Below are positions 7,735 to 60,400 of a stretch of 64,000 bases of DNA, in pieces. The translations under genes and the position numbers were made by a program. A model generated the notes under the pieces. It did no database searches and was not told the DNA's origin. It saw nothing but the letters and a program-made list of their open reading frames with translations. Numbering within the stretch: position 1 is the first letter of the stretch; every line of letters starts with the position of its first letter. Origin of the DNA: Patescibacteria group bacterium (lineage in GTDB: Bacteria > Patescibacteriota > Minisyncoccia > Phycocordibacterales > UBA918); contig JAIELQ010000007.1 in NCBI GenBank assembly GCA_019752815.1, forward strand, positions 40,922 to 104,921, written 5' to 3'.

Positions 7735-7839
7735 AGGATTAACAGTCTAGCATGCCTCAGTAAAAAAGATAGACGGGTGATTGTATCTGTGCTATAATCA
7801 TGGCATCTAACATTCTCCTTGTTGCCAGCAACAATATTT

Positions 7840-9962: not shown

Positions 9963-10694
9963 ATGCGTACCCTCATCTTTGATATCGAAACAGTAGGGGA
10001 AGTATGGGAAGATTTTGATGAGGTAACACAACGTGTGTTAACCAGATGGATTGATCGTTCAGTAAAAAATAATGAGGAACGTGATTTGCAACTCAAGGAT
10101 TTGCGTGAGGGCTTAGGTTTCTCACCATTGACTGGTCACATAGTTGCAATTGGGGTTTATGATTTAGAGAGATCGCAAGGTGCGGTGTATTACGTTGGTA
10201 ACGGTAATGAAGTCGACGATGAGGTGGGAGATTTTATCTACAAGAAGCGAACCGAAGCAGAAATGCTGCAAGAGTTCTGGGACGGTGCACGTGAATACGA
10301 CACATTTGTCACATTTAATGGTCGATCGTTTGATATCCCGTTTATTAACCACCGCAGTGTAGTCCATCGGATTACACCCAGTCGGGAACTAATGAAATAT
10401 CGGTACCTTTCTCAACAATCGGCACCATATCATATTGATTTACAAGATGAGCTCACCTGGTATGGGGCGATGATCAAGCGCCCAAGCCTGCATTTATTTT
10501 GCCGTGCCTATGGTATCACGAGTCCTAAAGGTGACGGTATTAGTGGTGATGATGTTGCAGGATTGTTTGCTCAAAAAAAGTTCCGCGAGATTGCGCAGTA
10601 TAATACCCGTGATGTAGTTGCGACTAAGGAGTTGTATGAGTTATGGTTCAAAAATTTAGCTCCCACGAGTTTTCTTAATATGCTTGATTTTTAA
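9963..10694 (+). CDS. RNase H-like 3'-5' exonuclease domain protein (YprB/PolB-exo-like)
   Basis: MRTLIFDIETVGE is exo motif I with DxE. FNGRSFDIPF is motif II, and there is a C-terminal Y...D region. Confidence 0.6.
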   Translation: MRTLIFDIETVGEVWEDFDEVTQRVLTRWIDRSVKNNEERDLQLKDLREGLGFSPLTGHIVAIGVYDLERSQGAVYYVGNGNEVDDEVGDFIYKKRTEAEMLQEFWDGAREYDTFVTFNGRSFDIPFINHRSVVHRITPSRELMKYRYLSQQSAPYHIDLQDELTWYGAMIKRPSLHLFCRAYGITSPKGDGISGDDVAGLFAQKKFREIAQYNTRDVVATKELYELWFKNLAPTSFLNMLDF

Positions 10695-35971: not shown

Positions 35972-37432
35972 ATGAATATATTTAGCGTAGAGGGAGGTTC
36001 AGTAGGGAGACTGGTGACAGGCTTGAGTTTATTAGCTTTGATTATGAGTGCTTTTCCGGTGTCTTTTGCTACGGCGGAAGGTGAAGAAGTTGCTCCAGTT
36101 ACTGATACGTCAGTCGTTAGTAGTTTGGTAGAAGAGACTGAGCCAGGAGATTTGTGTGACAACATGCTAGGTGTTCAATTGGAGGTGCCAACAGGTTGGA
36201 TGGCAGATGGAAGTTCATGTTATCTGGTTGAACCATCAGAGCCTACACTAGAAACAATCGAAGTTTGCAAATATACCTATGGGGAGGGGGAATCATATAT
36301 TCCTGTTGCCGGATGGATAATGTTTGTCACAAATATTGATCCAAATGAAATTATTGCTGCTGGTCCAGATGATGTGCCTGAGGGGTATATCTATGAAGTT
36401 GTCACTGATGATACAGGTTGTGTGACCCAGTCTGTTAATTCTGAAAATGGTCCGTGGTATGTATTTGAGGATATTGAAGACGGTTGGTACCAATCAGATG
36501 TTGATGTGGTAGGTGGTTACGCAACTGAAAGTGAGGGAGATAATTTCTGTGTCTTTTTTGATGATGAGATAATTTCTTCTGAATTGTCGCGCAGTGGTGA
36601 ATATAGTTATAGTTGTGATTTTTATAATGTGGATGATCGCGAAGAGGTAACTGGCTATAAGTGGAATGATGAAAACAACAATGGTGTTAAAGATGATTCA
36701 GAAGTAGGGGTTCAAGGTTGGACTATTACAGCTTCAGATAACACTAAAGCTGGATATTCTCCAGTTTCGGCAGTAACAGATGCCAATGGGTATTATTCAA
36801 TGATGCTTCCTAGTGATGGTAATTGGGTAATTACTGAAGAGTTGCGTTCTGGTTGGACACAAACTGCGGTATATGAAAACGGTTACAAACTAACAGAGGA
36901 AACGGAAGAGGGTGGCTCAATTGCAGAATGTTCACTTAATCTACGTTCAAAATACACAAAGGTTGCAGTTTTGGATGAAGTTACAGCGCCCGAACTCTAT
37001 AATCGTTGTGATTTCCTTAATTATCAAGAGCCGCGTCGTAGTGGTGGCAGCAGTTCGGGAACTCGCGTCAGAGAGCGTGCGACCCCACAGTCGTTAGTGC
37101 TAGGAGCAGCAACTGGCACACCAGCGTGTGGAATGTACCTCCAAGACTACATGCGTATGGGTAACGCTGCCTCTACAACCCAAGTAACAAAACTCCAAGT
37201 ATTCCTTAATGCAGTGGGCATTACTGCACCATTAACTGGAATCTTTGATGCCGGGACTGACGCAGCGGTACGAGCATTTCAAATGCAGTACAAACCAGAA
37301 GTTCTTACACCGTGGTATCTTGCCAAGTTAGTGCCACATGAGAATTCAACTGGTTGGGTGTACCAATTAACACGATGGAAAATCAATAACATTGTGTGCC
37401 CAGGCAGTGAAGCGTATCCGGTTCTAAACTAA
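35972..37432 (+). CDS. Secreted protein with a Cna-B/SdrD-B-like domain and a C-terminal peptidoglycan-binding (PGBD-like) domain
   Basis: Signal peptide; YKWNDENNNGVKDDSEVGVQGWTI...DANGYYSMMLP (SdrD B-like); TQVTKLQVFLNAVGI...DAAVRAFQMQY (PG_binding_1-like). Confidence 0.6.
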   Translation: MNIFSVEGGSVGRLVTGLSLLALIMSAFPVSFATAEGEEVAPVTDTSVVSSLVEETEPGDLCDNMLGVQLEVPTGWMADGSSCYLVEPSEPTLETIEVCKYTYGEGESYIPVAGWIMFVTNIDPNEIIAAGPDDVPEGYIYEVVTDDTGCVTQSVNSENGPWYVFEDIEDGWYQSDVDVVGGYATESEGDNFCVFFDDEIISSELSRSGEYSYSCDFYNVDDREEVTGYKWNDENNNGVKDDSEVGVQGWTITASDNTKAGYSPVSAVTDANGYYSMMLPSDGNWVITEELRSGWTQTAVYENGYKLTEETEEGGSIAECSLNLRSKYTKVAVLDEVTAPELYNRCDFLNYQEPRRSGGSSSGTRVRERATPQSLVLGAATGTPACGMYLQDYMRMGNAASTTQVTKLQVFLNAVGITAPLTGIFDAGTDAAVRAFQMQYKPEVLTPWYLAKLVPHENSTGWVYQLTRWKINNIVCPGSEAYPVLN

Positions 37433-37484
37433 CGTTTGGGATTGAAAAGGAAGATTGACGATAGAATATTGAACATACAACGTA

Positions 37485-37513
37485 GCAAAAAGCACCCTGC
37501 GGGTGCTTTTTGC
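37485..37513 (+). terminator. Terminator hairpin; left copy of a direct repeat flanking the rhuM/doc-like gene
   Basis: gcaaaaagcaccc-tgc-gggtgctttttgc. Confidence 0.65.
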
Positions 37514-37541
37514 TTGTATTAAATGATAGAATAATAAAACT

Positions 37542-38522
37542 ATGCCCAAAAAGGTTTTGGAAAAAAAGAATATACCAAGTAACGTTGTGGTCTACCAGAC
37601 AAAGTCGGGTGCTTTGGAGTTGCGTGGGGATTTTAAGCATGAGATGGTTTGGGCTACGCAAGCACAGATTGCAGATGTTTTTGAAATTGATCGTACAGTT
37701 GCAACAAAGCACATTAACAACACACTTAGGTCGAGTGAAGTTGATGAAAATAACAATGTGCAAAAAATGCACATTGCTAACTCAAAAAAACCAATCAGTT
37801 TGTACTCGTTGGATATTATTTTAGCTGTTGGGTACCGTACAAACTCAGCAAAAGCGATTGAATTTCGCCAATGGGCTACTAAAACACTCAGACAACACAT
37901 TGTGTCTGGCTACACTATCAATCGGGCTCGAATAGCTAAAAACTATGATGAATTCATGGCTACAGTGGCGAAACTGCAAGCAGTTCTGCCTAATAATGCT
38001 GAAATCGATTCTAAAACCACACTTGATTTGGTTAGATTGTTTGCGGATACGTGGTTCTCACTTGATGCGTATGATAAGGAGTCATTAGCACCTTCAAAAG
38101 TTAATAAAAAGAAATTAAAACTAACGGCCAAAGAGTTGCAAGATGGTATTGTGGTTCTCAAAACTGAGTTAATGAGAAAAGGCGAAGCAACCAATAACTT
38201 TGCTCAAGAGCGCAATCATGAGGCGTTGGAAGGAATAGTTGGTAACGTGATGCAAAGTTTTGGTGGAAACGAGCTGTATCCTAGTATTCAGTCAAAAGCA
38301 GCTCACTTACTCTACTTTATAATCAAAAATCACCCGTTTGTTGATGGTAACAAACGTTCCGGTGCGTATGCGTTTGTATGGTTCTTGCAGAAAACAAAAG
38401 TGCTTAACACTAACACTCTTACCCCAACCGCCCTTACTGCTCTCACTATTCTTATTGCAGAAAGTAATCCTGTTGATAAAGAGAAAATCATAGCCTTGGT
38501 CACTACTTTGATTTCAGGATAA
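37542..38522 (+). CDS. RhuM-family protein with a C-terminal Fic/Doc domain (Doc-type HPFxDGNKR motif)
   Basis: N-terminal KSGALELRGDFKHEMVWATQAQIADVFEIDRTVATKHI matches the Virulence_RhuM pattern. C-terminal NHPFVDGNKRSGAYAF is the Doc/Fic active-site motif. Confidence 0.75.
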   Translation: MPKKVLEKKNIPSNVVVYQTKSGALELRGDFKHEMVWATQAQIADVFEIDRTVATKHINNTLRSSEVDENNNVQKMHIANSKKPISLYSLDIILAVGYRTNSAKAIEFRQWATKTLRQHIVSGYTINRARIAKNYDEFMATVAKLQAVLPNNAEIDSKTTLDLVRLFADTWFSLDAYDKESLAPSKVNKKKLKLTAKELQDGIVVLKTELMRKGEATNNFAQERNHEALEGIVGNVMQSFGGNELYPSIQSKAAHLLYFIIKNHPFVDGNKRSGAYAFVWFLQKTKVLNTNTLTPTALTALTILIAESNPVDKEKIIALVTTLISG

Positions 38523-38524
38523 AT

Positions 38525-38560
38525 CACCCAAAAAGCACCCGCCAGGGTGCTTTTTGGGTG
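38525..38560 (+). terminator. Terminator hairpin (16-bp perfect stem); right copy of the direct repeat
   Basis: cacccaaaaagcaccc-gcca-gggtgctttttgggtg. Confidence 0.7.
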
Positions 38561-38617
38561 GTTGTCAGATCACAGAGCGAATAACAGAAGGGTTAATGGA
38601 CTACATTTGCTATACTA

Positions 38618-39847
38618 GTGGTACGTATGGATACACTTCATGACTTTTTGCATTCGTTGATTAATCATATTGTTCCGCATGAGGGGAATGATTACCGCCC
38701 GCATTTATTGCAACGGGGAGCGATGATATTGATGCTGATTTTGATTTTATTGTCATTTTTGGCGGCTAATTTCCAGGCGCTGTTGTGGCAATCGTCTGAT
38801 TGGTTGGTGGGAGCAGTGTTGCCGGCAGTCGTGGTTGATCTGACCAATACCGAGCGGGCAGATTTATCGTTGCCAAAATTAACCCGTAATCCGGTGCTCG
38901 ATGAGGCGGCCACGTTAAAGGCACAAGACATGGCCCGCAATAGCTATTTCTCACACGACAGTCCGACGGGAGTGACACCGTGGCACTGGTTTAAAGAAGC
39001 GGGATACACATTTGCCCATGCGGGTGAAAATTTGGCGGTGTATTTTAGTGATTCGAGTGAAGTGGTTGAAGCCTGGATGAATTCGCCAACCCACCGGGCC
39101 AATATTGTGGGGAGTCAGTATCGAGAAATTGGTGTAGGGGTAGCTCGTGGCACCTATGATGGGTTTGATACCGTGTTTGTGGTGCAAATGTTTGGTACGC
39201 CAGCCGCTATGCCAGTAGCTCGTGAGGTGGTAGCTGAAACTCCTCCTACCGTGATTACCGTTCCCGTTCCGCTCGCTATTGCGACTGAACAAACAAATTT
39301 GGCTACTGTAGAAACCGAAAGCTCTCCAACAGAGCCGTTAGTTGCCGGACAAACAAGTGATATACCAGAGCTAGATATGGTGGTTGTAAAAAACGTATCA
39401 GAAACTGAGACGGTGGCTGCTCAAACTGCCGCTGCAACTGAACCAATGGCAGTAGATGAATCAATTACCCAAATGAATACTGCTACTACGCCGGCGGCCT
39501 TTGCCGAAGAGGCCAAGACGGTGATGGGTGCGGCAGAAGCCATTAGTTTGTATTCAGGAATGGCTGCATCTTCGAGTAATCTCACTCCAGCGCCGTACAC
39601 CACTGTTGATTTAGAAGCTGAAGCCGCTCCAAAGGTAGCGGTCCTCGCCACCGAACCAAGTAAGCTGCTGCAGCTCATTTATCTAGTGCTGGGAGGGATC
39701 ACAGCGTTTGTACTACTGTTGTCCGTGATGCTCGAGTGGCGACATCATCGACCGATCCAGACTGCCTACGGTATTGTATTGCTTATGATTATGGCCGGAT
39801 TGTTCTATGTGCACACCACAATTGTGGCCGGTGCGATTATTCAGTAG
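38618..39847 (+). CDS. CAP/SCP/PR-1-domain protein (YkwD-like), TM-anchored, with an Ala/Thr-rich linker and a C-terminal TM segment
   Basis: LKAQDMARNSYFSHDSPTG...HAGENLAV...EAWMNSPTHRANI matches CAP-domain motifs. Confidence 0.7.
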   Translation: MVRMDTLHDFLHSLINHIVPHEGNDYRPHLLQRGAMILMLILILLSFLAANFQALLWQSSDWLVGAVLPAVVVDLTNTERADLSLPKLTRNPVLDEAATLKAQDMARNSYFSHDSPTGVTPWHWFKEAGYTFAHAGENLAVYFSDSSEVVEAWMNSPTHRANIVGSQYREIGVGVARGTYDGFDTVFVVQMFGTPAAMPVAREVVAETPPTVITVPVPLAIATEQTNLATVETESSPTEPLVAGQTSDIPELDMVVVKNVSETETVAAQTAAATEPMAVDESITQMNTATTPAAFAEEAKTVMGAAEAISLYSGMAASSSNLTPAPYTTVDLEAEAAPKVAVLATEPSKLLQLIYLVLGGITAFVLLLSVMLEWRHHRPIQTAYGIVLLMIMAGLFYVHTTIVAGAIIQ

Positions 39848-39853
39848 TTGAGT

Positions 39854-40294
39854 ATGGCACAAACAAGTATTACGACAATTTATAAAAGTGACACCAGTAA
39901 CACGGGAGCGACCCTCACTCCTTTGTATACCTCTGCGCCAGCAGCGGGCTTTCCGGCACCGGGGGATGATATGGTAGAAAAGTCACTGAATGTTCATGAG
40001 TATCTGGTAAAACATCCGGTATCGACGTTTTTTGTCCGGGTGGAAGGAGATTCGATGGAAGGGGCGGGGATTTTCTCGGGTGATATTTTAGTGGTTGATA
40101 GAAGTGTGGAGGCAAAAGCCGGTCGCATCGTGGTAGCTGCCGTTGGCGGTGGGTTGGTGGTTAAACGCCTCGCCCTGCTCGCGGGGAATATGGTTCTCAT
40201 GTCTGAAAATGAAGCCTATGCACCAATAACAGTGACAGGGGATGAGGAGTGTTTTGTGTGGGGTGTAGTAACCGGCAGCGTCCGCCACTTCTAG
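39854..40294 (+). CDS. umuD: UmuD-like S24 self-cleaving peptidase (LexA C-terminal-domain homologue without an HTH)
   Basis: PAAG|FPAP is an Ala-Gly cleavage-site motif. VRVEGDSMEGAGI carries the Ser nucleophile and LVVKRL the Lys. The protein is 147 aa with no DNA-binding domain. Confidence 0.7.
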   Translation: MAQTSITTIYKSDTSNTGATLTPLYTSAPAAGFPAPGDDMVEKSLNVHEYLVKHPVSTFFVRVEGDSMEGAGIFSGDILVVDRSVEAKAGRIVVAAVGGGLVVKRLALLAGNMVLMSENEAYAPITVTGDEECFVWGVVTGSVRHF

Positions 40295-40477
40295 GAGAAT
40301 CCGAAAAACTACCTCATCTACTGCGTTGCCTGCGTCGGAAAATTTCTCACCGTATATTGAATACGGCTCGCAATTTTTCTCCTTGTCGCCTTGTATCTAA
40401 GGCAGTTTATCGAATTCTCTAATCCAATCACTCTGTTTTTGAAGTTTTCCACCTCCTTACGGATTCTAATTAAAAAA

Positions 40478-40506
40478 ACAGGCGCCCAAGTTATTGGACG
40501 CCTTTT
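40478..40506 (-). terminator. Weak terminator hairpin downstream of the small minus-strand gene
   Basis: aggcg-N14-cgcct followed by a T-run on the minus strand. Confidence 0.35.
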
Positions 40507-40509
40507 CGT

Positions 40510-40704
40510 TTATTCGCCGTCGCCGGTCGCCGGTCGACCAAAATCTTTTGTGTCAATCTGGTCTGGATTGTACGTAATGACTGCATCTGCAGTATTTGCA
40601 ACTGGAGCTGGGTTGAAGATTGGGTCATACGGCTTTGTGGCCGGCTGACGTTCATAAGCGGGCATATTGTGTTCGAGAACACGGTCTACCGGGTCACGGG
40701 CCAT
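40510..40704 (-). CDS. Small hypothetical protein (64 aa) with a strong RBS
   Basis: AGGAGG lies 7 nt upstream of the ATG (MARDPVDRVLEHNMPAYERQ...). It sits inside the 625-bp spacer between the umuD-like gene and the GH18 gene. Confidence 0.4.
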   Translation of the reverse strand: MARDPVDRVLEHNMPAYERQPATKPYDPIFNPAPVANTADAVITYNPDQIDTKDFGRPATGDGE

Positions 40705-40920
40705 GGTGTTTCCTCCTTCTGACTGTCCCACGATTGTAACTACATCAGTCAATAAAAAGTAACCGCCCGACACATGAGACGGTAGAGGGGTGGTCCCTAT
40801 AGTCAAGGATTTATTTTTTGGTGATTGGCGATATTTCCCGTATGATGAGTAGAGTAATCATGACAGAGTATCCGCAGATTATATAGGTAAGAAAAGGCCG
40901 TTTAAGTCGTCTTAAAAATT

Positions 40921-42162
40921 ATGACAACCACTACAATAATCTATCCAAAAACGCTTATTAATTCATGTGTTACGAGCATCATTCTGGCGAGTCTGTTATT
41001 GTCAGCCTACCCAGCTTCTGCTGCGACCAGTAGATCATCGTCAAATGATGATTTTAAGGGTGAAGTGGCGGGTTGGATTCCGTGGTGGCAAGATACCGCG
41101 GGTCTCAAAAGCGCTACTAAAAACATTAAAAAAATTGATACCGTCTACCCGTTTGCCTTTGAAGTGGATGCTTACGGAAATATTACGGACAAAGCTGGCT
41201 TAAACGAAAAACAATGGCGTGATTTTATCAAGCTAGCCAAGAAAAATAAGGTTGAAATCATTCCGTCCGTGGCTTGGTTTGATGGTGATCAAATTGGCGC
41301 GATGTTGAGTGACCGCAACCGTCGCGAGGTGCATATAAATCAAATCGTAAATATCGTTAAAAAAGGGAAGTATGATGGCATTAATATCGACTACGAGGGA
41401 AAGAACGCTGAAAATATTAATGATTTCTCGAGATTCCTCGAAGAATTAAATAAAGCGCTCGGTAGTAAACTCCTCACCTGTGCGATTGAAGCCCGAACTC
41501 CAGCTGTAGATCTATACAAGGTAGTGCCTAATCCCCTCACGTACGCCAACGACTACAAAGAAATCGCGAAACATTGTGACCGGATTGAACTGATGACGTA
41601 CGACCAGCAACGGGCGGACCTGACCCTAAACGCCAAACGAGCCGGTTTGCCGTATACACCAGTAGCTGACAAAGAATGGGTAGAGAAGGTAATTAAGCTA
41701 GCCTTGGAAGATTTTCCTGAAGATAAAGTAATGGTCGGAGTAGCCACCTACGGACGCGCCTGGGACGTTACCGTGGCTCCTGGATGGTATCGTGACTATG
41801 TGCGTGTTGCTACCCTAAACGAACCACGTATTCTTGAGTTATCAAAAGAAATCTACAAAACACCAATTGGGTACAGTACGGGTGGCGAAGCGGTGATGAG
41901 TTACTTCCCTGAAGATTCACCATACAAAGTTCTCACCGCCCTCCCAGTCCCTAACGGAACGCCAAAGGGATATGAAAATGCCGCCCGCGCTCTGTTGTTT
42001 GCTGATTTAGCCAAGACCGAGGTAAAAGTACGATTTATTACGTACAACGATGCCGTTTCAGCCAAAGACAAGTTGGAACTGATTGAGAAATATGATTTGC
42101 GCGGTGTAGCCTTCTTCAAAATTGATGGTGAAGAAGATCCAGATATTTGGAAGTTGTTTTAA
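40921..42162 (+). CDS. GH18-family glycoside hydrolase (SleL/YdhD-chitinase-like), secreted
   Basis: Signal peptide; [11 protein letters not shown] is a DGxNxDxE variant of the GH18 catalytic motif. Overall GH18 TIM-barrel pattern. Confidence 0.7.
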
Positions 42163-42181
42163 GAAGTTAATCAACATATCA

Positions 42182-42217
42182 AAAAAGCCTTAAGGATTTA
42201 ATCCTTAAGGCTTTTTG
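42182..42217 (+). terminator. Rho-independent terminator
   Basis: aaaaaagccttaaggattt-aatccttaaggcttttt, a perfect 14-bp stem. Confidence 0.7.
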
Positions 42218-42258
42218 TCACCATTGGATATACTCAATGCTATAATTGAAATATTATT

Positions 42259-42984
42259 ATGACACATGAGGATATTTCCACGGAGGCATATGAATGGGTT
42301 AAGGATAATCCAGCAGTCCTGATTGAGGCTATTGCTGGTAGGTATAAAGATTTAGAAGAGGGTCGTGTAGCAGTTTTTATGGCTGGTGCACCAGGCGCTG
42401 GAAAGACCGAATTTTCACGATGTCTTATTCGAGACACGTTCGGTCCAGACACAACACTAATCGTAAGAATTGACCCGGATGAAATTAGGATGCTAATCCC
42501 TACATATATAAAAGGTAAAGCAGAGTTGTTTAATCGAGCAACTACAAAAGGGGTTGAGATACTAGTTGATCATTGCTATGACAGAAATTTAGATAAAAGT
42601 TTCTTGTTGGATGGCACATTAAGTAACTGTGAAGTTGCAAGAAGAAATATCGAAAGAGCTTTAGATCGGGGTAGAAAAGTACTAATCTATTTTGTGTATA
42701 AAGATCCGGTAGTTGCGTGGGATTTTACTCAAAAGAGAGAGAAAATCGAAGGACGTAATATTCCTAAAGAGAGTTTTATTAATCAGTATTTCGGTTCAAT
42801 TGAGACTATTAATCAATTAAAAAAAGAATATGGAAACAGAATACAAATCGATTTAGTGCAGCTTGCTGTGCCAAATTTACAAAAGCCTCTTATTACTGAC
42901 TATAAATTTGAGTTCAATATTAGCAGTGTTGACGGGTATTTAAATACAAGGTATTCTAAAGATACATTAAGTGAACTGCTATGA
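42259..42984 (+). CDS. Zeta-toxin family P-loop kinase (PezT/zeta-like)
   Basis: VFMAGAPGAGKTEF is the Walker A motif. IVRIDPDEIRMLIPTY matches the zeta/PezT GGQSGAGKT...IDGDSFRSQHPHY pattern. Confidence 0.65.
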   Translation: MTHEDISTEAYEWVKDNPAVLIEAIAGRYKDLEEGRVAVFMAGAPGAGKTEFSRCLIRDTFGPDTTLIVRIDPDEIRMLIPTYIKGKAELFNRATTKGVEILVDHCYDRNLDKSFLLDGTLSNCEVARRNIERALDRGRKVLIYFVYKDPVVAWDFTQKREKIEGRNIPKESFINQYFGSIETINQLKKEYGNRIQIDLVQLAVPNLQKPLITDYKFEFNISSVDGYLNTRYSKDTLSELL

Positions 42985-43175
42985 AGTATATCCTTAAATT
43001 TCTTGGAAGAGAGGGAAAAAAACGTTCGGGTATTAAAAGCCCCGTCTACGTCTTTTTTGCAGAAGCGGACGCAACTGTAAAAACAAAAGCCTATAGAAAA
43101 GCACTTCGAAGTGCTTCAGAAGATCAAATGTCTATTTTATCAAAGTATGATAAAGAGTTTGCACAGATGAATTAA
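42981..43175 (+). CDS. Small basic hypothetical protein, translationally coupled (ATGA) to the zeta-like gene
   Basis: 64 aa. The start overlaps the upstream stop, and a terminator follows. Confidence 0.35.
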   Translation: MKYILKFLGREGKKRSGIKSPVYVFFAEADATVKTKAYRKALRSASEDQMSILSKYDKEFAQMN

Positions 43176-43198
43176 AAATCCCTTGAAAGGGATTTTTT
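43174..43198 (+). terminator. Rho-independent terminator
   Basis: aaaaatccc-ttgaaa-gggattttt. Confidence 0.7.
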
Positions 43199-43261
43199 AC
43201 TACGATGCCTTTTGTGGCCGAATAGGGATGACTGCACAATTGTGTATTGTATACTGATTCT

Positions 43262-44515
43262 ATGAACTACATTGGGGTGATTGATTGTAATAATTTTTTT
43301 GTGTCGTGTGAGCGGCTATTTCGGCCGGATTTGGTGGGGAAACCGGTGGTCGTTTTGTCATCAAATGATGGGTGTGTGGTAGCGCGCTCGCAAGAAGTAA
43401 AGGACATGGGGGTCCCGATGGGGGTACCTATCTTTCAGATAAAAGACATGATAAAGGACAAAGGAATTATAACGTTTTCTTCACACTTTGCGCTGTATCG
43501 CGATATTTCCAGTCGGGTTTTTACCGTGGTTAAAACACTTCTGCCCACGCGCGAGATATACTCAATTGATGAAGCGTTCTTTACTATAAGCGCACATTCT
43601 AAAGCGGAGTTAGAGGCGACGTTACGCGCCATGAAAATTGAGATTGAACGGCAGGTGGGTATCCCGGTATCCTTGGCGGTGGCGGCTACCAAAACTCAGG
43701 CTAAATATGCCAATCGGCTGGCGAAGAAATCAGGTGGTGTGACTGTCCTTGATCCGGCAGATTGGGAGGCGCTTACGCCCATGATACCGCTACAGAATAT
43801 TTGGGGAGTGGGCGGGAAGTTGGAGATGCGGTATAAAAACGCCGGACTAGTAACCGTAGCTGATTTGATTGCGTGTCCCAAATCGCGGATTGCCAGTATG
43901 TTTGGGATTGTGGGGGTGCGGCTGCAAGCTGAACTCGCCGGTATGCCGATGTATGCCGTATCGGAAGTGCATGCGCCGCAAAAAAGTATTATGAGTTCTC
44001 GGTCATTTGAAAAGAATGTGACCGAGATAGCGGTGGTAAAAGATGCGGTAGCGTACCACCTGCGCCAAGTGGTAGCCGAGCTACGTCATTTACGTCTCAA
44101 AACCAAGAATCTATCAATATTTTTAGGTACCAGTCGCCACGGTGATTATCTGCTACGTGGCGGTTCACTCGGGGTCGAAAACATGACGCCAACGGATGAC
44201 ATAGTTTTTTTACTGAAGCAGGCGTTTGCCCTGGTTGACAGGCTGTATGATGCGGAAGTGCCGTACAAAAAGGCCGGGGTCTACATCAGTGGTTTTAGTC
44301 CCAAAACGGTCATCCAGCAGTCGTTATTTACTGATACTGACGAAGTAACCTATAGCCCGATCAATGACCTTCTTGATGGTTTTAATGCGCGCTACGGGGC
44401 TGATATGGTAACGATCGGCACGCATACCAAAGAACGGAAATGGCAATCAAAATCAGAACAAAAATCTCCGGCCTATACGACGCGCTGGAGTGATCTCGCG
44501 GTGGTAAAGACATAA
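43262..44515 (+). CDS. umuC: Y-family DNA polymerase (UmuC/DinB-like translesion polymerase)
   Basis: GVIDCNNFFVSCERL matches the Y-family motif I (DxxxFFxxxE). SNDGCVVARS; GIGPV-like HhH region; little-finger domain. Confidence 0.8.
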   Translation: MNYIGVIDCNNFFVSCERLFRPDLVGKPVVVLSSNDGCVVARSQEVKDMGVPMGVPIFQIKDMIKDKGIITFSSHFALYRDISSRVFTVVKTLLPTREIYSIDEAFFTISAHSKAELEATLRAMKIEIERQVGIPVSLAVAATKTQAKYANRLAKKSGGVTVLDPADWEALTPMIPLQNIWGVGGKLEMRYKNAGLVTVADLIACPKSRIASMFGIVGVRLQAELAGMPMYAVSEVHAPQKSIMSSRSFEKNVTEIAVVKDAVAYHLRQVVAELRHLRLKTKNLSIFLGTSRHGDYLLRGGSLGVENMTPTDDIVFLLKQAFALVDRLYDAEVPYKKAGVYISGFSPKTVIQQSLFTDTDEVTYSPINDLLDGFNARYGADMVTIGTHTKERKWQSKSEQKSPAYTTRWSDLAVVKT

Positions 44516-44831
44516 CGAAATGTAGTAATCGACACGTGTACTTGATGTCTTGAAGTAGAAAAATGTTCAATGTCGAAACTAAAACTATATAAATAACCAT
44601 TTGCTATCGGTACTCACCTCAGGACAAAAAGGTTATACACACGGGGTACAGAGACAGGTATCAAGAACATTTATATACTGTTGGTAGATCGATTGCATTA
44701 GGTGCGTACGTACAGGCTGAATTTTTTTCACTAAGTACATACAAGCCGCTCCACAAACATGCAGTCGAGAAGTGTTCATTGCAACGCAAGTTGTGACTAC
44801 ACAAAGTTATTTAATAAAATAAAAAATAAAT

Positions 44832-45965
44832 ATGTTCAAACATTCAACTATTACTGTTGAATCTTTGCACCGAGTGGTCGCGATGCTCGTTGCAACAGCT
44901 GTATTGGCTATGTCGGTTGGGTTCTTCAATAATGCCCAAGCTGCTAACCTTGCAGTGATCAGCAACACTTTATCAGACTCAGATCGAAGTGCGCTCTCGA
45001 ATCATACGATTCAGTTCACGATTCCTACCAGTTCACCTGGTGTACTTGCTACACAAACAATCGTTGTGACATTCCCTACTGGATTCAACATGGGATCAGT
45101 TGCGTTCGGAGACATTGACTTCGCAATTAACGGCGTTGAACAAACTCTTGCAGCAACACAATCAGGTGCTACTTGGGGAGCTACCGTGTCAGGTCAAAAC
45201 CTCACACTTACCTCAGGTACTGGAGTTGTAACTGCTGGACAAGTAGTTCGGATTCGAGTTGGAACAAATGCGGTAACGGGAGGAACTGGTACAAACCGAG
45301 TCACCAATCCTGGTACAACAGACTCATATGAGTTTATAGTTACCGCGGGGGCTGCTGACTCAGGTCGCACTAGAGTCGCAATTCTCGATAACGTAGATGT
45401 TACTGCAATTGTAAATACATCATTCACATTTACTGTTGCCGGACTCGCTACATCAACTGCTGTAAACGGAACTTCAACTACAGGTTCAACTACAGCGACA
45501 GCTATTCCATTCGGAGTACTTACTGCCGGACAAATTAAAACAATGGCACAACGACTTAATGTCACTACAAACGCCCGAAACGGATTCGTAGTAACCGTTG
45601 AGCAAGATCAAAACTTGCAATCATCAACTGGTGCCGACATTGATGGATTTATTGACGGAGCCTACACAAATACTCCAACTTCATGGGTAGCTCCAACTAA
45701 CAACATTGGAAATGAAAACACCTGGGGTCACTGGGGTCTCACGTCTGATGACTCAGACCTAAACTCCAACGAGTTCGGTACAGCACTCTTCGTAGCTGCA
45801 AGTACCACACCACGCCAGATTTTCGCTCACAACGGACCGGCCGATGGTATCGCCAACGATATCGGTTCAACAACTGTAGGGTATCAAATCCAAATCAGTC
45901 CACTCCAGGAAGCGGGAGATGACTACAATACTGTACTTACCTACATCGCAACCCCTACATTTTAG
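44832..45965 (+). CDS. Secreted Thr/Gly-rich surface protein; N-terminal domain paralogous to the dockerin protein at 50042; possible WxL-like C-terminus
   Basis: Signal peptide; ISNTLSDSDRSALSNHTIQFTIP aligns with ISNSGPEQPSNHTLSFTLT of the 50042 protein. The C-terminus carries WGHWGLT and LTYIATP. Confidence 0.45.
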   Translation: MFKHSTITVESLHRVVAMLVATAVLAMSVGFFNNAQAANLAVISNTLSDSDRSALSNHTIQFTIPTSSPGVLATQTIVVTFPTGFNMGSVAFGDIDFAINGVEQTLAATQSGATWGATVSGQNLTLTSGTGVVTAGQVVRIRVGTNAVTGGTGTNRVTNPGTTDSYEFIVTAGAADSGRTRVAILDNVDVTAIVNTSFTFTVAGLATSTAVNGTSTTGSTTATAIPFGVLTAGQIKTMAQRLNVTTNARNGFVVTVEQDQNLQSSTGADIDGFIDGAYTNTPTSWVAPTNNIGNENTWGHWGLTSDDSDLNSNEFGTALFVAASTTPRQIFAHNGPADGIANDIGSTTVGYQIQISPLQEAGDDYNTVLTYIATPTF

Positions 45966-46120
45966 TTCCAAAATTCATTCATTAGCTTCGTTGCCCTCAG
46001 CATTTTAAATCCTCATCGTACAAGAAGTACGACTCGGATCTAAAAGCTTCAGTGCCTCGCTTCTAAATAAATTTGTGAAACTAAAATACTATTCTTAAAA
46101 CGTATCATTAGAGTAGTTGG

Positions 46121-46174
46121 CACGCACAAAACAACAAAACCTCCTCTATGGAGGTTTTGTTGTTTTGTGCGTGA
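46121..46174. terminator. Very long (25-bp stem) perfect hairpin, probable bidirectional terminator
   Basis: gcacgcacaaaacaacaaaacctcc-tcta-ggaggttttgttgttttgtgcgtg. Confidence 0.6.
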
Positions 46175-46256
46175 GGTGATGTTTCTGTTTATAAAATTAC
46201 GAAGGCCGATGATTTTAAATGCTATGATAGATTCATTAATCTTTAAGTTTGTTTGC

Positions 46257-47315
46257 ATGATTCGCACCCTTTTTACTGCTCTGTTGTTTGCTTTTGTTTT
46301 GTTGCCGTCCCTTTCATTTGCGCAAAGTGATGCTGGGATTGGTCTTAAGCCAGCGAACATTGCTGAAAATATGGAGCCGGGTGAAGTGCGTCAATTTACG
46401 GTGCTTGTAGAAAACGTCAGTGGTCAGGATCAAAATTATTATATCTTCAAGCGAGATATTTCTGGAGTGCGAGACGGAGGGGTGCCAATTTTTGCTGATA
46501 ATAATTTGGATACCGGTGGATTTGCGTTAAGTGATTGGATACAACTTGAATCAGACAGACTCGAAGTAAAAGCTGGTGAGGAACGTGCCATGTCATTTAT
46601 TATGTCAGTGCCGCAAGATGCATCACCGTGTGATCACTTTGGCGGGATTTTTGTCTCGGCTGAACCCCCAGAATTAGAAGCGAGTGGTGCTGCTATCGGC
46701 TACCAAGTTGCCAACATTGTTAGTATTAGAGTAGCGGGTGAGTGTATTGAAAAAGCCCAGATTAGACAATTCTCAACCGACAATTATTTCTACGGTTCTT
46801 CAAATGTAGATTTTAATCTTAAGTTTGAAAATAGTGGTAACACACTCTTGCGACCAACTGGTCCCCTGACCATCACCAACATGTTTGGAAAACAGGTTGC
46901 CAATTTGACCTTTAACGAAGAGCAGGCAGGAGTATTTCCAGGTGTGACACGTGAGTTCTTGTTTAGTTGGACGAGTGACCAAACCGGCTTTGGACGGTAT
47001 GAAGCGATGGTGAGCCCGAGTTATGGAGAGGAAGGTTTCAAGCAAACCGCCTTTAGTACCGCAACGTTCTGGATCCTGCCGATGAATATTATTCTGCCGG
47101 CCGCAGGAGTGTTAGCCGCACTGCTTTTGATTGCCTATATCAGTATTCGTGTGTATGTGAAGCGACAGCTGGCGTACTACGGAGCAACCTCAGGAACTCG
47201 AAAACTAGTTCGTCGACACACCAACAATAGTTCAACACCGCTCTTGTTAATTCTAGTAGTGATGGTGTCGGTGACGGCTTTGTTCCTGCTCATCCTCCTA
47301 GCCCTATTCGCCTAG
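46257..47315 (+). CDS. DUF916/DUF3324-like (CscA-like) cell-surface protein with a C-terminal TM anchor
   Basis: Signal peptide MIRTLFTALLFAFVLLPSLSFAQS; two beta-sandwich-like domains (GIGLKPANIAENMEPGEVRQFTVLVENVSGQDQNYYIF...); C-terminal TM segment followed by a basic stretch. Confidence 0.45.
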   Translation: MIRTLFTALLFAFVLLPSLSFAQSDAGIGLKPANIAENMEPGEVRQFTVLVENVSGQDQNYYIFKRDISGVRDGGVPIFADNNLDTGGFALSDWIQLESDRLEVKAGEERAMSFIMSVPQDASPCDHFGGIFVSAEPPELEASGAAIGYQVANIVSIRVAGECIEKAQIRQFSTDNYFYGSSNVDFNLKFENSGNTLLRPTGPLTITNMFGKQVANLTFNEEQAGVFPGVTREFLFSWTSDQTGFGRYEAMVSPSYGEEGFKQTAFSTATFWILPMNIILPAAGVLAALLLIAYISIRVYVKRQLAYYGATSGTRKLVRRHTNNSSTPLLLILVVMVSVTALFLLILLALFA

Positions 47316-54440: not shown

Positions 54441-54482
54441 ATAATGAGCCCCGTTTTCTATGTGCGTGGGTTTTAAAAAGTC

Positions 54483-57400
54483 GTGATACGTCCGTTTAAG
54501 TTACTAAAGAAATCGACCTTTGGAGCACTACTAACAATTACTGTTATTAGTGGTTTTGTCGTGTACGGAGCTTATATTGATCGGACAGTGTACACCACCG
54601 AACAACTAGTCATTATCCCTGGTAAAGTAACGTCAGATTCGTGGCTTGGTTTGGAATCAGTGTTAGTGCAAGATATTTCTGAATACTCTCTCTATCAAGA
54701 CTTTACACAAAAAAATTCAGCCTATATTTCAGAACTAGGATTGTTTTCAGCACAAGAGAGTGAGGATGCTCCAACACCGGATGAGCCAAATGAAGTGTCT
54801 ATTGATGGCGACTCTGCTTCAAGCAGTGACGAAGTTCCAAGTACTGACAGTGAGTCAGGTGGTTCAGAGAATGGTGACAATGAGTCGTCTGAGACTGATG
54901 CACCTACTGCTGAAACATCACAACCAGAACCAGAGTCTGAACCTGAACCACAACCAGAACCATCTTCTGAATCTGAGTCAGTATCATCAATTACAAATCC
55001 AGGAGATCCAGTATGGGGTGTATTTACGAAAACCAATAACCGCTTTTTGTTGGCGCAGGCGATTGTGACTGAAGAAGCTTCTGAACCTGAACCTGCTTCT
55101 TCACCAGAACCTGAACCAGCGGTCGTGACTACAGAAGAGTCAGGTACCGAAGAGACTGCTGTAGTGGACAATGTGCCAGTAGCTGAAGAGACTCTTGAAA
55201 CTGCTGTCACTGAAGAATCAGTGGAGACTACACCGGAAGGTAGTGGGGCAACTAATGAAGGTGAAGAAGCAGAAATTCCTGTCAGCGAATCAATTGAGGG
55301 TCAATCTGAGGCAGAGCCTGCAACAGAAGAAGATACAAGTAACGATTACGTGATGGCACCGTGCGATCCTGCAAGTGGATGTGCAACCCATAGTATGTTG
55401 TTCTCTGATTTCTTGATGCCGGATTTTGACGGTGGTACTGTTCTAGATTCAATTCAACTGCGGTTATCACTGGCCGCACAAACAAAACAAAATCGTGGAG
55501 AAGGGCCACAACGTTTTTTGGTTGAGTACACATACGACACTAGTACAACGTCTACCGACTGGATTACTGCTTCTGTACTAGATATTGATGATGAAATCAG
55601 TAACAGTATTAACGGCGGATATTACCTGCTCTCATTACAGCCGCCAAAAACTGCAGGTGAGATTGCTAACTTACAAATTAAAGTTTCCTATCAAGGGAAT
55701 GTGAGCGATTTGGAAACAGCCTACGTTGAAGGCATGTGGCTCGAAGTTACTTCAGGTAAGTTTTTTGAAGAGGGAGCTGGTGAAGCGTATAGTGATGAAG
55801 TAACCTACGGTCGTGATTTGTTGGCGCCAGAGCTTAACACATTAAACAACGCTGATCTCGATCCAACATTGGGGACGTTGCCACAATTTACACTCTCCTA
55901 TGATCCGCAACAAGGATTCTTTAACCGTATTTTTAGAACACTATTTTCAGAGAACACATTTGTTGTCGAGCGTATCAATTTAACAGATAGTAATGGTGAT
56001 GCTATTGAAGTGCCATTTGGAATTGAGTATCACGACAATGAAACATGGACTATGAAGGCGCAACAAATGCCTCATAAATTACGACCGGGTAAATACCTAG
56101 TGACTGTTGATATTCTAGAAAATGAAGAACGATATACTGATACGTTTGAATTTTACTGGGGGGTATTGGCAGTCAATACCAAGAAAAGTATGTATTTCCC
56201 CAATGAGGAAGTCCAACTCAATCTCGCAGCCTTAACTGACAAGGGCGATACTATTTGTAACGCTAATTTGGAACTTAAGATTATCGATCCCAAAGGAACT
56301 ATTACTGAAGTACCTGTCAATCAGTCAGGTGCATGTGGGCCAAATAACGTCACCGATATCCCAGACTACATTGCTGAATTCTCCAATACTGGAGAATGGG
56401 GTGCATACACTATTCAATTGCAGCATAAAAATGCCTCAGGAGAAGTTGTGCATAAAATTTCTGATAGTTTTGAAGTTCGTGATTACATTCCATATGATAT
56501 TGAGCGCACTGCACCAACACGTATTTATCCACCTGCCCCCTACGATGTAACGCTAAAAGTAAAAGCATATCGTGATTTTACGGGTGATGTTACCGAGCGT
56601 GTCCCGCGTGGGTTTGTAATTGAAGGTCTTGAAGGAGCTTTGGTCAGTACCTTGCCGGAGTACACATTAATTACCTGGCCGGATGTGACAATGATGGAAG
56701 GTGATGAGCGAACCTTCTCATATAATTTTGATGCCCCTGACATCAGTCCGTACATGTATCTCCTGGGGCCACTTGATATGGATGGGTTTAGTGAATTGCG
56801 TCAATGGCAGGTGGCTTCTGATGCGTTAAATAACATCGGCTGGTTTACCGGTACACGCACGGTAGCTAGTTCCAGTTTAAATACCGCTCCGAGCCCAATG
56901 CAGTGGTCAACCAGTTCAATTGATAATTATTACTACACTCACTCTACCTCTTCTGATTCGCAACGAGTGACTTTACGACAAAGTGGTGATTATTTAGTGT
57001 CAGTTAACCTCCCGCAACAGCGAGCCGATATTAATGTTAGTCGCACTCGGGCTGCTATTGAAGTTCGAAAAAACGGTGTTGCCGTTCCGGAAGGTTTAGG
57101 TCGCAGTGGTTACATTACGGGAGGTAACGGCGCAGTGCACTCGGAGTCATCCTCCAACGTTTCGTTTTTGATGACGGGAGTTACCGCTAACGATTATATT
57201 GAGATATTTGTTGAGAATCTCACTACAATTGATGCGGGGGATGTGATTAATGTCAGTGGATTAGCTTCAATGTATATTGAGTATTTGCGACCTACGGAAA
57301 CAGTGTTTGCCGCTACCACTACCAGAACAACAAACTCTACAAATTTTAACCAAGTTACCGCTTTTCCTCTTGAGTGGATTGAAACACGTCAAGATGCTGG

Positions 57401-60400
57401 ATTCTCTCACTCAAATACCATAACACCACAAAATATCACCCTGACTGCAACAGGTACGTACATGGTTCATGTAAACCTGCCGTTACAACATACAAATGCC
57501 CAACAAAACATTGCCGGGCGCATCTTGCTTGATGGTGCAGTTGTAAGTGGCGGTCATTTTGGTCAGGGATTTTCGGACGGGAATGCAAACGAAAGTGATG
57601 GGGACTCCAGTATTCATTTCTCGGGTGTTATCATCGCTACGTCAACTAATCAAGTCCTTACAGTAACAGCTGCGCGCGAGGGTAATACTGGAACAACAAC
57701 TGTGCCTGCAGGGTTTACTGGTTCGATAGTTATTCAAAAATTACCAACCTCAGGTGTTATTGCGTTGCGGGGACGGGATTTGGTAGGTGGTACAAACTGG
57801 AACTCAGCTGTTGCTTCATCAACCAGGTTCAATACACAATTAGCATACGACAATAGTGTTTTTACTCATTCAACAACTACTAATAATCACCAGATTACTG
57901 TTAACCAGAGTGGAGATTATATTTTGAATTTCACTGACGCTGTTACCTCAGCGACACAATTCGTAAACAATAGAATTACTGTCTCAGTAGGAAGTACAAC
58001 TGTTACCGGTGCACAATCCAAATCAAACTTCTTGCGTAACTTAAATGCTGCCAATGAAGCGTCCACCAACCTGGTTTTCCTCCTGGAGAATGTGACAGCT
58101 GGTCAAATAATTACGGTAAATTCACAACAAGAAGGAGCTGCCGGCACTATCAGTACAACGACTGATGCCACGTTATTGTTGTGGAAAAAAGCAGATTTAA
58201 ACTTCCGGGCAATAGCACCAACAATGTTTGCAACTCCGTTTGATAATGCGCGCTTTGCATCCACTACTCCTTGGTTTGATTTTCAAAGTAACGATCCTGA
58301 TGGTTCGTCTGATATAGAATATGAATTTTCGATTTCAACATCGTCTGATTTTGCAACTGCGACTATTCGAGTTTCGGGTACTGATGCCGGCTTCTCAAAT
58401 ACAGCCTCAACTTCGGATACGTCACCATTTGTAGAGGCTAATCGCGTACGGTTCCAACTTCAGCCTGCAGATACACTGACTGACCTTACAACGTATTACT
58501 GGCGTGTTCGAGCACGAGATGTGAGTGGTTCTGGTGAGTTTGGGGACTATTCTACAACCCAAAGTTTCTCTATTAATACCGGAGATACGGTACCGAATTG
58601 GTATCAAACGCTTTCAGGTCAATTCCAAACCAACTCGTTGTTTGGCGCTATTTCAAATGATCTGGAAAATAACGTTAGAGTAAACTCAACAGTTAGTTCA
58701 GAAATAATGGTGGCGTACGGCGATAGTACTAGTGCAACACCAAAGTACCGATTGTGGGGTGGTACGAGTTGGGGGATTGAACAGTCTGCGATCAGTGTTT
58801 CGGGTACGATTAACTGGGTACGGTTGGCTTCTGGTGTGAAGCGAGATGAATATATGCTCGTAACGCTAGATCAAAGTAATGACACCTTTGCGCAGGTATA
58901 CAATGCCACGTCTTCAACGTGGGGCAGCAGAACATTGCTCGCTGACAACGTGGCTGATGTAACTCGTCGCGGTATTGCTGTTGGGTATGAGAGTGTCTCG
59001 GGAGACGCAATGGTTGTATCTTGTGATAACACAAAAAATCCGGTATATCGTATTTGGAATGGTAGTACTTGGTCTGCAACTACCAGTATTACAACGGTCG
59101 TCACTGGAGTGTGTAACTTCCTTGAGTTAGCTTCTGACCCAGCATCAGATGAGATGATTTTGGTGGTGCGCGATAGTGGAGCAGCGATTGGAAACAACTA
59201 CGAAGCGTTGGTCTGGGACGGAAACGCGTGGGGTAATAGTCGTGTGTTTGGTTCGGTTCAGGCTGGGCAACTGTTGCGGGCTGGTATCGGTCTAAAATAT
59301 GAGTCGTCTGGTGACCAGGCGATGGTGGCGGTTACTAACGGTGGTAATAACAACTTTATTTATACAACCTGGACTGGTACTGGATGGACCAGTAATGCCA
59401 CTCAGCCACTCTTTAACGATTTCGAGTTCGGTACTCTGGTGTCTGATCCAAACTCGGACAAATTGACCCTTTGTTACATTAATGATAGTGCGCGTGTAGG
59501 TGCGGTACGGTGGGACGGTGGAGTTTGGTCGACATTTGTTGATTTATCAAACACCGGTAACTCTCAAGCGGGACGACCGATTGATTGTGAGTTTGAAACA
59601 ACTGCTGGCCGTTCAGGAAATATTTTAGCTACCTATTCGGATACTACCAATTTGCGCTACCAAGTATATGCAACCTCATCCTGGGGTGGGCAGCAAACAG
59701 TCACCGGAGTAGGTTCTGGGGCCGGGTTATTCTGGGTGCAAACCGAGCGGGCAGGGGATGGGACAATTGTAGCGCTCTCTCATGACGATGCGGTTGCCGG
59801 TGACGAGCTTGAGTCATCGTATTGGAACGGTACAAGTTGGTCTACCAAACAAGTAATTGCGCCTAATCCATCTTCAATTATCGGTGCTCCGTATGAGACT
59901 TTTGAAATGGCGGCCAAACGGTATCAATTTACTCAAGGAATTGTTACAACACAACCAATAACATTTACAAGTGTTTCAGGTCAGCCAACGTGGGGTGATT
60001 TGACGTTTAGTTCAACTGAACCATTCGGGACTGATGTGACAGTGCGCTTAAAATACACGAGCACGACAACATGTGATACCTATATCCCTAATGGTGTTTT
60101 GGCGGGTAATGGCACTGGTTTTGATACTGCGTCGCTACCGGTAAACTTAACTGCTCTTTCAACTACAACCTATAGTCAAATTTGTCTTGAGGCCACTTTG
60201 ACAACTTTTGGTTCGGCGAGTGCGTCTCTCGACGACTGGTCATTGTCATGGGTACGTAAACCAAAACTTACTCAAAATGCATTTCGCTGGTATGGTAACG
60301 GTAGTTTCCTGACTCCAACCGACCCGTGGCCACTTGGGGTACTTGATGTGCTCGAAAACACCGCACTTACCGCCAATGAGTCGGTAAATCTCAATGATGT

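Follow-up and report, generated by a model that had tools for sequence, protein, structure and literature searches.

The window, a stretch of 64,000 nucleotides (nt) from a Patescibacteria (candidate phyla radiation, CPR) bacterium, carries a umuD-like gene and a umuC-like gene that are kept apart by four other genes: a small minus-strand gene, a GH18 hydrolase gene, and a cassette of two coupled genes for a zeta-toxin-like P-loop kinase and a basic protein of 64 amino acids (aa). From the sequence and from structural models, we consider it probable that the umuD-umuC stretch is not one island and that it consists of a conserved backbone, GH18 as an old entry and two later additions, with the cassette as a zeta-type toxin-antitoxin (TA) module of reversed gene order that belongs to a mobile two-gene family. 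The features of the locus, in window coordinates, are as follows.

37542 to 38522, plus strand: Fic/RhuM (Doc-like) gene (Pfam Virulence_RhuM and Fic; candidate defence family PDC-S23 of PADLOC, E 1.6e-99)
38522 to 38563, no single strand: strong hairpin terminator, bidirectional, that separates Fic from CAP (-34.1 kcal/mol, z -8.8; terminator scan)
38618 to 39847, plus strand: CAP/YkwD-domain protein, membrane-anchored (PF00188, 6e-20; directly 5' of UmuD in loci L011-L021 and L025)
39848 to 40294, plus strand: UmuD-like Peptidase_S24 protein without a helix-turn-helix (HTH) (NF007621, 142 bits against a cutoff of 110)
40480 to 40503, minus strand: terminator of the minus-strand small open reading frame (ORF) (terminator scan; -16.8 kcal/mol, z -4.7)
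40510 to 40704, minus strand: gene of a 64-aa small protein between umuD and GH18 (ribosome-binding site (RBS) GGAGGA; homologues in L011-L014)
40921 to 42162, plus strand: GH18 hydrolase, predicted to be secreted (PF00704, 3e-28; signal-peptide-like N-terminus)
42182 to 42216, plus strand: GH18 terminator hairpin, the left edge of a variable slot (17-bp perfect arms; -21.2 kcal/mol, z -6.8)
42241 to 42246, plus strand: TATAAT -10 box of the cassette, 12 nt 5' of the kinase ATG, giving a short leader (read from the sequence)
42259 to 42984, plus strand: zeta-toxin-like P-loop kinase, putative toxin (PF06414, 1.5e-31)
42981 to 43175, plus strand: 64-aa basic helical protein, putative antitoxin or partner (ATGA overlap with the kinase stop)
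43174 to 43197, plus strand: cassette terminator, the right edge of the insert (-10.4 kcal/mol, z -4.0; kept in L011 and L012)
43228 to 43255, plus strand: promoter of umuC itself, ATGACT-16-TATACT (promoter scan; 6 nt between -10 box and ATG)
43262 to 44515, plus strand: UmuC-like Y-family DNA polymerase (Pfam IMS, IMS_C and DUF4113)

The gene content given in the initial annotation of this DNA (CAP, UmuD-like peptidase, minus-strand 64-aa ORF, GH18, zeta-like kinase, coupled 64-aa ORF and UmuC) was recovered in full by ORF listing and by family scans of the window proteins against Pfam, NCBIfam and PADLOC. Exact-sequence look-ups with the kinase and with UmuC gave no entry; proteins identical to those of the window are recorded for Patescibacteria under the locus tag K2P47. 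The strong terminators it had placed between the modules are real hairpins, four of them with folding energies from -10.4 to -34.1 kcal/mol and z-scores from -4 to -8.8. Structures were modelled with AlphaFold2 (AF2) and compared with the PDB by Foldseek. Relatives of the window were gathered as UmuC homologues by exact-protein look-up and by a scan of a genome collection with a UmuC alignment; the UmuC sequence alone returned no relative from the same collection, and the alignment query recovered them. All window proteins were then placed in 93 loci by tblastn, and synonymous divergence (dS) was measured against the relatives L012 and L011.

In about 65 of these loci, from other lineages (Bacteroidales, Proteobacteria, most Saccharibacteria and others), umuC directly follows umuD, so the separation in the window is derived, as had been supposed. 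The order CAP-UmuD-GH18-UmuC-377aa-382aa was found in 11 loci (L011-L018, L020, L021 and L025) and reaches down to 41% UmuC identity, in a window clade whose UmuC identities run from 41 to 90%. GH18 is best regarded as an old, retained resident between umuD and umuC, because it holds the same position in these 11 relatives (52-93% GH18 identity) down to that depth. Its GC content of 44.5% is host-like and its dS to L012 of 1.4 is like that of the flanks; one locus, L019, has CAP-UmuD-UmuC without GH18. The comparison of synteny that had been suggested as a check therefore cut both ways: contiguous umuDC genes do occur in other lineages, and for GH18 the spacing shared by the relatives is the very pattern that had been named as speaking against an insertion. 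The hydrolase carries DGINIDYE at residue 152 in place of DxxDxDxE, with the catalytic Glu and the adjacent Asp kept and the middle Asp changed to Asn.

The cassette has a GC content of 35.6% against 44-51% in its neighbours, with 27% at third codon positions (GC3) of the kinase, and 0.24% of equal-size windows in the 64 kb have a GC content as low. The spacer between umuD and GH18 had been described as AT-rich; this was not borne out, as the 626-bp spacer has 44.7% GC against a window mean of 43.7% and the AT-rich segment is the kinase cassette. Compared with L012, dS is 0.22 for the kinase and 0.31 for the small ORF against 1.1-1.8 for the flanking genes, and a tract of 92-100% identity (42267-43166) matches the two coding sequences, with flanks at about 80%. 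By composition and divergence, the kinase and small ORF are the foreign part of the locus, recently exchanged and the youngest of three differently aged pieces between umuD and umuC. Compared with L011, homology ends at 42216, the end of the GH18 terminator, and resumes at the small-ORF start, 42980, so the kinase and its promoter were cleanly replaced there by a DUF3800 gene, which occupies their exact place with its own promoter and terminator (L011 4068-4881). The small ORF of L011 is 89% identical to that of the window, with a dN/dS (ratio of nonsynonymous to synonymous divergence) of 0.057, and its dS of 1.08 is flank-like, which means that the cassette has been in the slot since before the window and L011 diverged and that the small ORF was kept under constraint.

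The initial annotation had gathered these genes into a single accessory island, in which GH18 and the zeta-like kinase, acting jointly on the cell wall, were inserted together into a contiguous umuDC. Such an island would suit the contiguity of umuDC in most other lineages and the tie of both GH18 and zeta toxins to the chemistry of N-acetylglucosamine (GlcNAc) (general knowledge; PMC3062530), yet GH18 stands in its place in the 11 relatives with or without the kinase, the two differ in GC content and in dS as given above (44.5% and 1.4 against 35.6% and 0.22), and a strong terminator lies between them. The kinase pair was without GH18 in every other context examined, and we rejected GH18 and kinase as one module. 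Looking for island hallmarks, we found no tRNA in the window, no integrase in the region and no direct repeats flanking 42217-43197. We regard a single island as very improbable.

The kinase alignment was used to scan metagenome and viral collections, and the kinase copies with a complete 3' end were examined. A homologous ORF of 44-74 aa lies immediately downstream in 143 of 143 copies, mostly at an offset of -4 nt (an overlap; range -32 to +29), and no kinase without the small ORF was present among them; the coupled ORF had been put forward as a candidate antitoxin from the window alone, and this pairing makes it an obligate partner of the kinase. Eighty-three non-redundant pairs were assembled, and the distance matrices of kinase and small ORF correlate (Mantel r 0.68, p 0.001). 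In a profile search of 1.84 billion representatives the small protein was always free-standing, at 57-75 aa, with no fusion to kinases or HTH domains. A more distant zeta-domain protein of 269 aa on a P. aeruginosa plasmid has no small ORF, so the pairing rule is limited to this subfamily and does not extend to all of PF06414.

The pair is found in many settings. Kinase relatives at 47-85% identity lie in unrelated neighbourhoods (L001, L002, L003, L005 and L007: a TA/defence island, surface-protein clusters, an RNase J neighbour and a glycan-synthesis cluster), each followed by an ORF of 60-65 aa, and the family is very widespread in Patescibacteria. The pair also occurs on the Shewanella plasmid pSA70-4 beside integrase fragments, on an Enterococcus phage-like contig, and on 56 IMG/VR contigs, one of them L177, where tail and baseplate genes are present and a CI-like repressor adjoins it. 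In the TA/defence island of L001 (2494-8965) two cassette copies accompany Fic, ParE/RelB, Mrr-nSTAND3, OLD/AAA_15 and a Y1 transposase. The sole upstream feature common to cassettes in unrelated contexts is a -10-like box 7-12 nt before the ATG.

When the pair decays, the small ORF outlasts the kinase. Five small ORFs lie beside a frameshifted or truncated kinase and one, in L011, stands without any kinase, a count that is not unbiased because the loci were gathered by kinase similarity and orphan small ORFs are under-counted. The second cassette copy of L001 has a frameshifted kinase and an intact small ORF. One-sided decay of this kind would be expected of a toxin and its antitoxin. Purifying selection is strong on both genes, with a dN/dS of 0.04-0.08 for the small ORF.

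The position of the small ORF just ahead of umuC in the window and in L012 and L011, its retention in L011 after the kinase was gone, and a pair placed directly upstream of umuDC in L040 could also mean that it regulates umuC and is no partner of the kinase. A terminator stands between the small ORF and umuC, however, the small protein has no DNA-binding fold, and more than 140 loci have the small ORF behind the kinase but no umu gene in the vicinity, which makes this explanation scarcely credible. The placement in L040 (8734-11260; Saccharimonadales) is an observation in its own right, as is a pair at most 5 kb from a umuDC pair on the prophage-like contig L177 (5953-11979; also L184). A specific linkage of kinase pair and umuDC was considered and set aside, with three independent co-occurrences among about 230 loci being too few.

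The kinase matches PF06414 at E 1.5e-31, with 110 bits against a cutoff of 22, so the hidden Markov model search that had been proposed for it came out well over the threshold. Its AF2 model has a mean predicted local distance difference test (pLDDT) score of 92.7, and the best PDB matches are zeta 1gvn_D (E 3e-10, template-modelling score 0.66), 3q8x and PezT 2p5t, followed more weakly by gonococcal zeta, PFKFB kinase domains and AvrRxo1. In 98 homologues K49 (the Walker A Lys), D74 (in IDxD), T120, R160 and R166 are invariant; D74 aligns with PezT D66 (zeta D67), and T120 with zeta T118 in the GT(L) motif, the roles of the zeta catalytic residues being those described in PMC3062530. On fold and residues, the kinase is classed here as a zeta-type phosphotransferase. 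Mutschler et al. (2011, PMC3062530) reported that zeta Arg120 contacts the UDP phosphates and that Thr121 is conserved and near the bound substrate. The residues of zeta that bind UDP-GlcNAc include Glu100 and Thr128 besides these two. The equivalents of Arg120 and Thr121 in the kinase are Ser122 and Asn123, and UDP-GlcNAc (uridine diphosphate N-acetylglucosamine) is for this reason not established as the substrate. The description of the kinase as zeta-like thus stands for fold, family and catalytic residues and falls short at the UDP-contacting arginine, and the claim that kinase and GH18 both target the cell wall loses its footing at the same point. What precedes the kinase is GH18 and its terminator, with no epsilon-like gene, as had been noted, and no PezA-like gene, and the upstream genes differ in every relative.

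The small protein is basic, with a net charge of about +7. Its AF2 model (pLDDT 78.7) has a disordered basic N-terminus and then four short helices across residues 21-62, and the family shares the core motif F(S/A)xFxxxASSxEKKxVY...AxxxQ. It matched no family in Pfam, NCBIfam or PADLOC and had no credible fold match in the PDB. We tentatively propose, as a possibility somewhat short of an even chance, that this helical protein of about 60 aa represents an unrecognised family of antitoxins for zeta-type kinases, encoded downstream of the toxin and spanning Patescibacteria, proteobacterial plasmids, prophages and an Enterococcus phage-like contig. Such a family would explain a share of the 'orphan' zeta toxins, and this branch of kinases, with the arginine missing, may poison a substrate other than UDP-GlcNAc.

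The locus can be given a history on this basis. GH18 would have entered the umuDC pair long ago, with umuC gaining a near-leaderless promoter of its own. Two later additions would then have been laid on this backbone, namely the minus-strand 64-aa gene and, in the slot between GH18 and umuC, the self-contained cassette of -10 box, kinase, small ORF and terminator, one of a large family of two-gene modules that move between genomes, plasmids and prophages. As to function, the kinase would poison the cell by phosphorylating an essential metabolite, either a nucleotide sugar such as UDP-GlcNAc or another nucleotide-containing compound. The translationally coupled helical protein would bind the kinase stoichiometrically and hold it inactive, and its loss or degradation, upon loss of the cassette or phage infection, would set the kinase free. 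The order of toxin and then antitoxin would be the reverse of that in epsilon/zeta and PezAT. The gene content, the layers of synteny, the foreign composition and recent exchange, the strict pairing, the one-sided decay, the zeta fold and the catalytic residues are observed; we infer the toxicity, its neutralisation by direct binding and the substrate.

Several observations weigh against a TA module. In the structure search the small protein resembled neither epsilon nor PezA, and it has no recognisable DNA-binding domain; the regions upstream of cassettes in different contexts share no conserved operator or palindrome, and classical type II autoregulation is not evident; neither kinase nor small protein has a PADLOC match of note. 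The replacement of zeta Arg120 and Thr121 leaves the canonical toxic substrate not assured. The small ORF of L011 is under purifying selection without a kinase, which could mean that it has a function of its own, and the pair of Kaiserbacteria within a glycan-synthesis cluster also fits a metabolic role.

These points lead to the main rival, in which the pair makes up an enzyme of two subunits that is not toxic and serves metabolite or nucleotide-sugar salvage in reduced genomes, the small protein being an activator, a specificity subunit or a phospho-acceptor. Strong purifying selection on both genes, the wide spread of the family in Patescibacteria, the partial retention of the zeta UDP-GlcNAc-binding residues, the persistence of the small ORF in L011 and the Kaiserbacteria pair between an epimerase and glycosyltransferases would all be expected of such an enzyme. 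A salvage enzyme sits less well with a pair that is patchy among close relatives (absent in L013 and L014, its kinase replaced in L011), has a foreign composition and was recently exchanged, is carried on a plasmid and a prophage-like contig, shares a TA/defence island with a second copy that has decayed, and has toxins as its closest solved folds; we hold this rival to be unlikely. The Kaiserbacteria cassette itself (L007-L010, 8001-8903) lies between an epimerase of sugars that depends on nicotinamide adenine dinucleotide (NAD) and a run of glycosyltransferases, with a kinase at 47% identity and a partner of 60 aa. This context could hint at a nucleotide-sugar substrate.

The TA reading has a mechanistic sub-case with another biological role. 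The cassette possibly serves as an abortive-infection defence against phages, in which the small protein keeps the kinase in check and is removed upon infection. The variable slots of these loci hold defence-type cargo (Fic PDC-S23, AbiEii and DUF3800, and in L001 Mrr-nSTAND3 and OLD/AAA_15), and on the prophage-like L177 the pair lies beside the CI-like repressor. No PADLOC model matches the kinase or the small protein, which tells against this role, and we consider it distinctly unlikely.

The two genes of the ancestral pair deserve a closer account. The UmuD-like protein has AG at residues 32-33, followed by FPAP, and the dyad of Ser69 (in GDSM) and Lys106; no HTH or other DNA-binding domain was found in it by family scans or in its sequence. 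With NF007621 above its cutoff, it was correctly described as an S24 peptidase with an AG cleavage site and no HTH. UmuC has its best NCBIfam match in NF002955 (UmuC), at 281 bits, under the cutoff of 431. The genes lie 2,967 nt apart with four genes and three terminators in between, and at this locus they have neither the adjacency nor the co-transcription of a DNA polymerase V (Pol V) operon. A TATACT/TATAAT box 5-10 nt 5' of the umuC ATG recurs in the clade members with a readable umuC start, L011, L013, L015, L016 and L017, and the umuC transcript looks near-leaderless, its gene a transcription unit of its own. The two genes are transcriptionally uncoupled in this lineage and have been for a long time, and the umuDC split is a lineage-specific rearrangement of ordinary genes.

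Such boxes stand only 5-12 nt before the starts of umuC, kinase and CAP, without a Shine-Dalgarno sequence (43250-43264, 42241-42261 and about 38609-38629), which suggests that these mRNAs may be leaderless or have very short leaders. The minus-strand small ORF, unlike these three, has a perfect GGAGGA.

As for regulation, CTGT-N8-ACAG, GAAC-N4-GTTC, GTTC-N7-GTTC and related LexA-box motifs occur nowhere in the 64 kb, in line with what had been noted, and the phylum's own motif may differ from these canonical types. The palindrome ACAATTGT, which the initial annotation had put forward as an operator of umuC, is indeed present at 43236, about 30 nt upstream of the umuC start, and again at the same distance before umuD (39818). 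The window has 6 occurrences of it in all, and the two copies before umuD and umuC are degenerate in L012 and absent in L011, L013 and L014, so we rejected the operator role; its placement before both genes is probably chance.

The conserved block that holds these genes extends over 35972-47315 in the window and recurs in L011-L021 and L025, with an SdrD/peptidoglycan-binding protein, CAP, UmuD, GH18, UmuC and two surface proteins, a secreted one of 377 aa and one of 382 aa with a weak WxLIP_PGBD match. The Pol V gene pair thus sits within a cluster of cell-envelope genes. Farther downstream, at 54477-64000 on the plus strand, one ORF of more than 3,170 residues runs off the window end and belongs to a giant protein gene.

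The other later addition, the divergent 64-aa ORF, had been singled out for its strong RBS, and it was found as described at 40704..40510 with the RBS GGAGGA and a terminator of its own. It occurs only in the window and in L011-L014, at 41-61% identity, with a conserved N-terminal M.RDPVDRVLEHNM, a conserved C-terminal KDFGRPATGDG and a variable proline-rich middle; its conservation marks it as evidently a real gene in five related loci. The protein matched no family in the family scans. In more distant relatives the gap between umuD and GH18 is only 50-200 nt, and the gene is best read as a clade-specific insertion.

The gap between GH18 and umuC varies in the same clade. It is an empty slot of 82-250 nt in L017, L025 and L014, holds kinase and small ORF in L012, L094 and the window, holds the DUF3800 gene and small ORF in L011, and holds two unrelated minus-strand genes in L013. 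The insert of L013 measures 2,145 nt, and its genes encode 273 and 321 aa of no family. It lies between direct repeats of 64 nt (7836-7899 and 9981-10044) that cover the -10 box and start codon of umuC together with its first 14 codons, which suggests that a small integrative element may use the 5' end of umuC as its attachment site. Upstream of CAP there is a second variable slot, with Fic/RhuM in the window and AbiEii/DUF6922 with decayed Fic remnants in L013. These two gaps are turnover hotspots for TA and defence cargo within a deeply conserved block.

Zeta toxins belong to the small number of TA toxins directed at cell-wall precursors, and their value as leads for antibiotics has been discussed. 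If our reading is true, this family would gain a large branch in which the gene order is reversed, the partner is new and the substrate may differ. The literature held no paper linking zeta toxins with Patescibacteria or CPR, save one unrelated mention.

Measured against known systems, the umu genes resemble the umuDC (Pol V) operon in that one strand encodes both a self-cleaving-type UmuD-like S24 peptidase and a UmuC-like Y-family polymerase that has DUF4113, and differ from it in their distance of nearly 3 kb, in the separate promoter of umuC, in the contiguity of umuD with a gene for a CAP membrane protein and in the lack of a LexA box among the motifs searched. The cassette is closest to epsilon/zeta of pSM19035 and PezAT of S. 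pneumoniae. It shares with them a PF06414 P-loop kinase that is structurally nearest to 1gvn, 3q8x and 2p5t and keeps the Walker A Lys, the catalytic Asp, the Thr118 equivalent and two Arg, and the make-up of a two-gene, translationally coupled, mobile module. Unlike them, the window kinase comes first and the small protein second, the partner has no HTH and no similarity to epsilon or PezA, identity is only 17-22% (phmmer E 0.008 to PezT), and the change of Arg120/Thr121 to Ser/Asn means that the substrate may not be UDP-GlcNAc. The upstream antitoxin and the epsilon/PezA-type antitoxin that define those operons are both missing from the cassette.

AvrRxo1-ORF1/ORF2 (Arc1) of Xanthomonas offers a precedent for the gene order, as a zeta-fold kinase toxin is followed there by a small inhibitor gene, and the kinase model matches 4z8v and 4z8q. 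The match is weaker (E about 4e-5) and the relationship distant; AvrRxo1, a type III effector of larger size, phosphorylates NAD, and the sequence of its ORF2 bears no relation to that of the small ORF of the cassette. The 'orphan' PezT/zeta toxins listed in a 2023 review (FEMS Microbiol Rev, PMC10532202), for which new antitoxins were sought only among upstream genes, are like the window kinase in having no PezA or epsilon upstream, whereas the window cassette has its conserved partner downstream. If the small protein is an antitoxin, a simple rule for re-annotating 'orphan' zeta toxins would be to check downstream for an ORF of about 60 aa.

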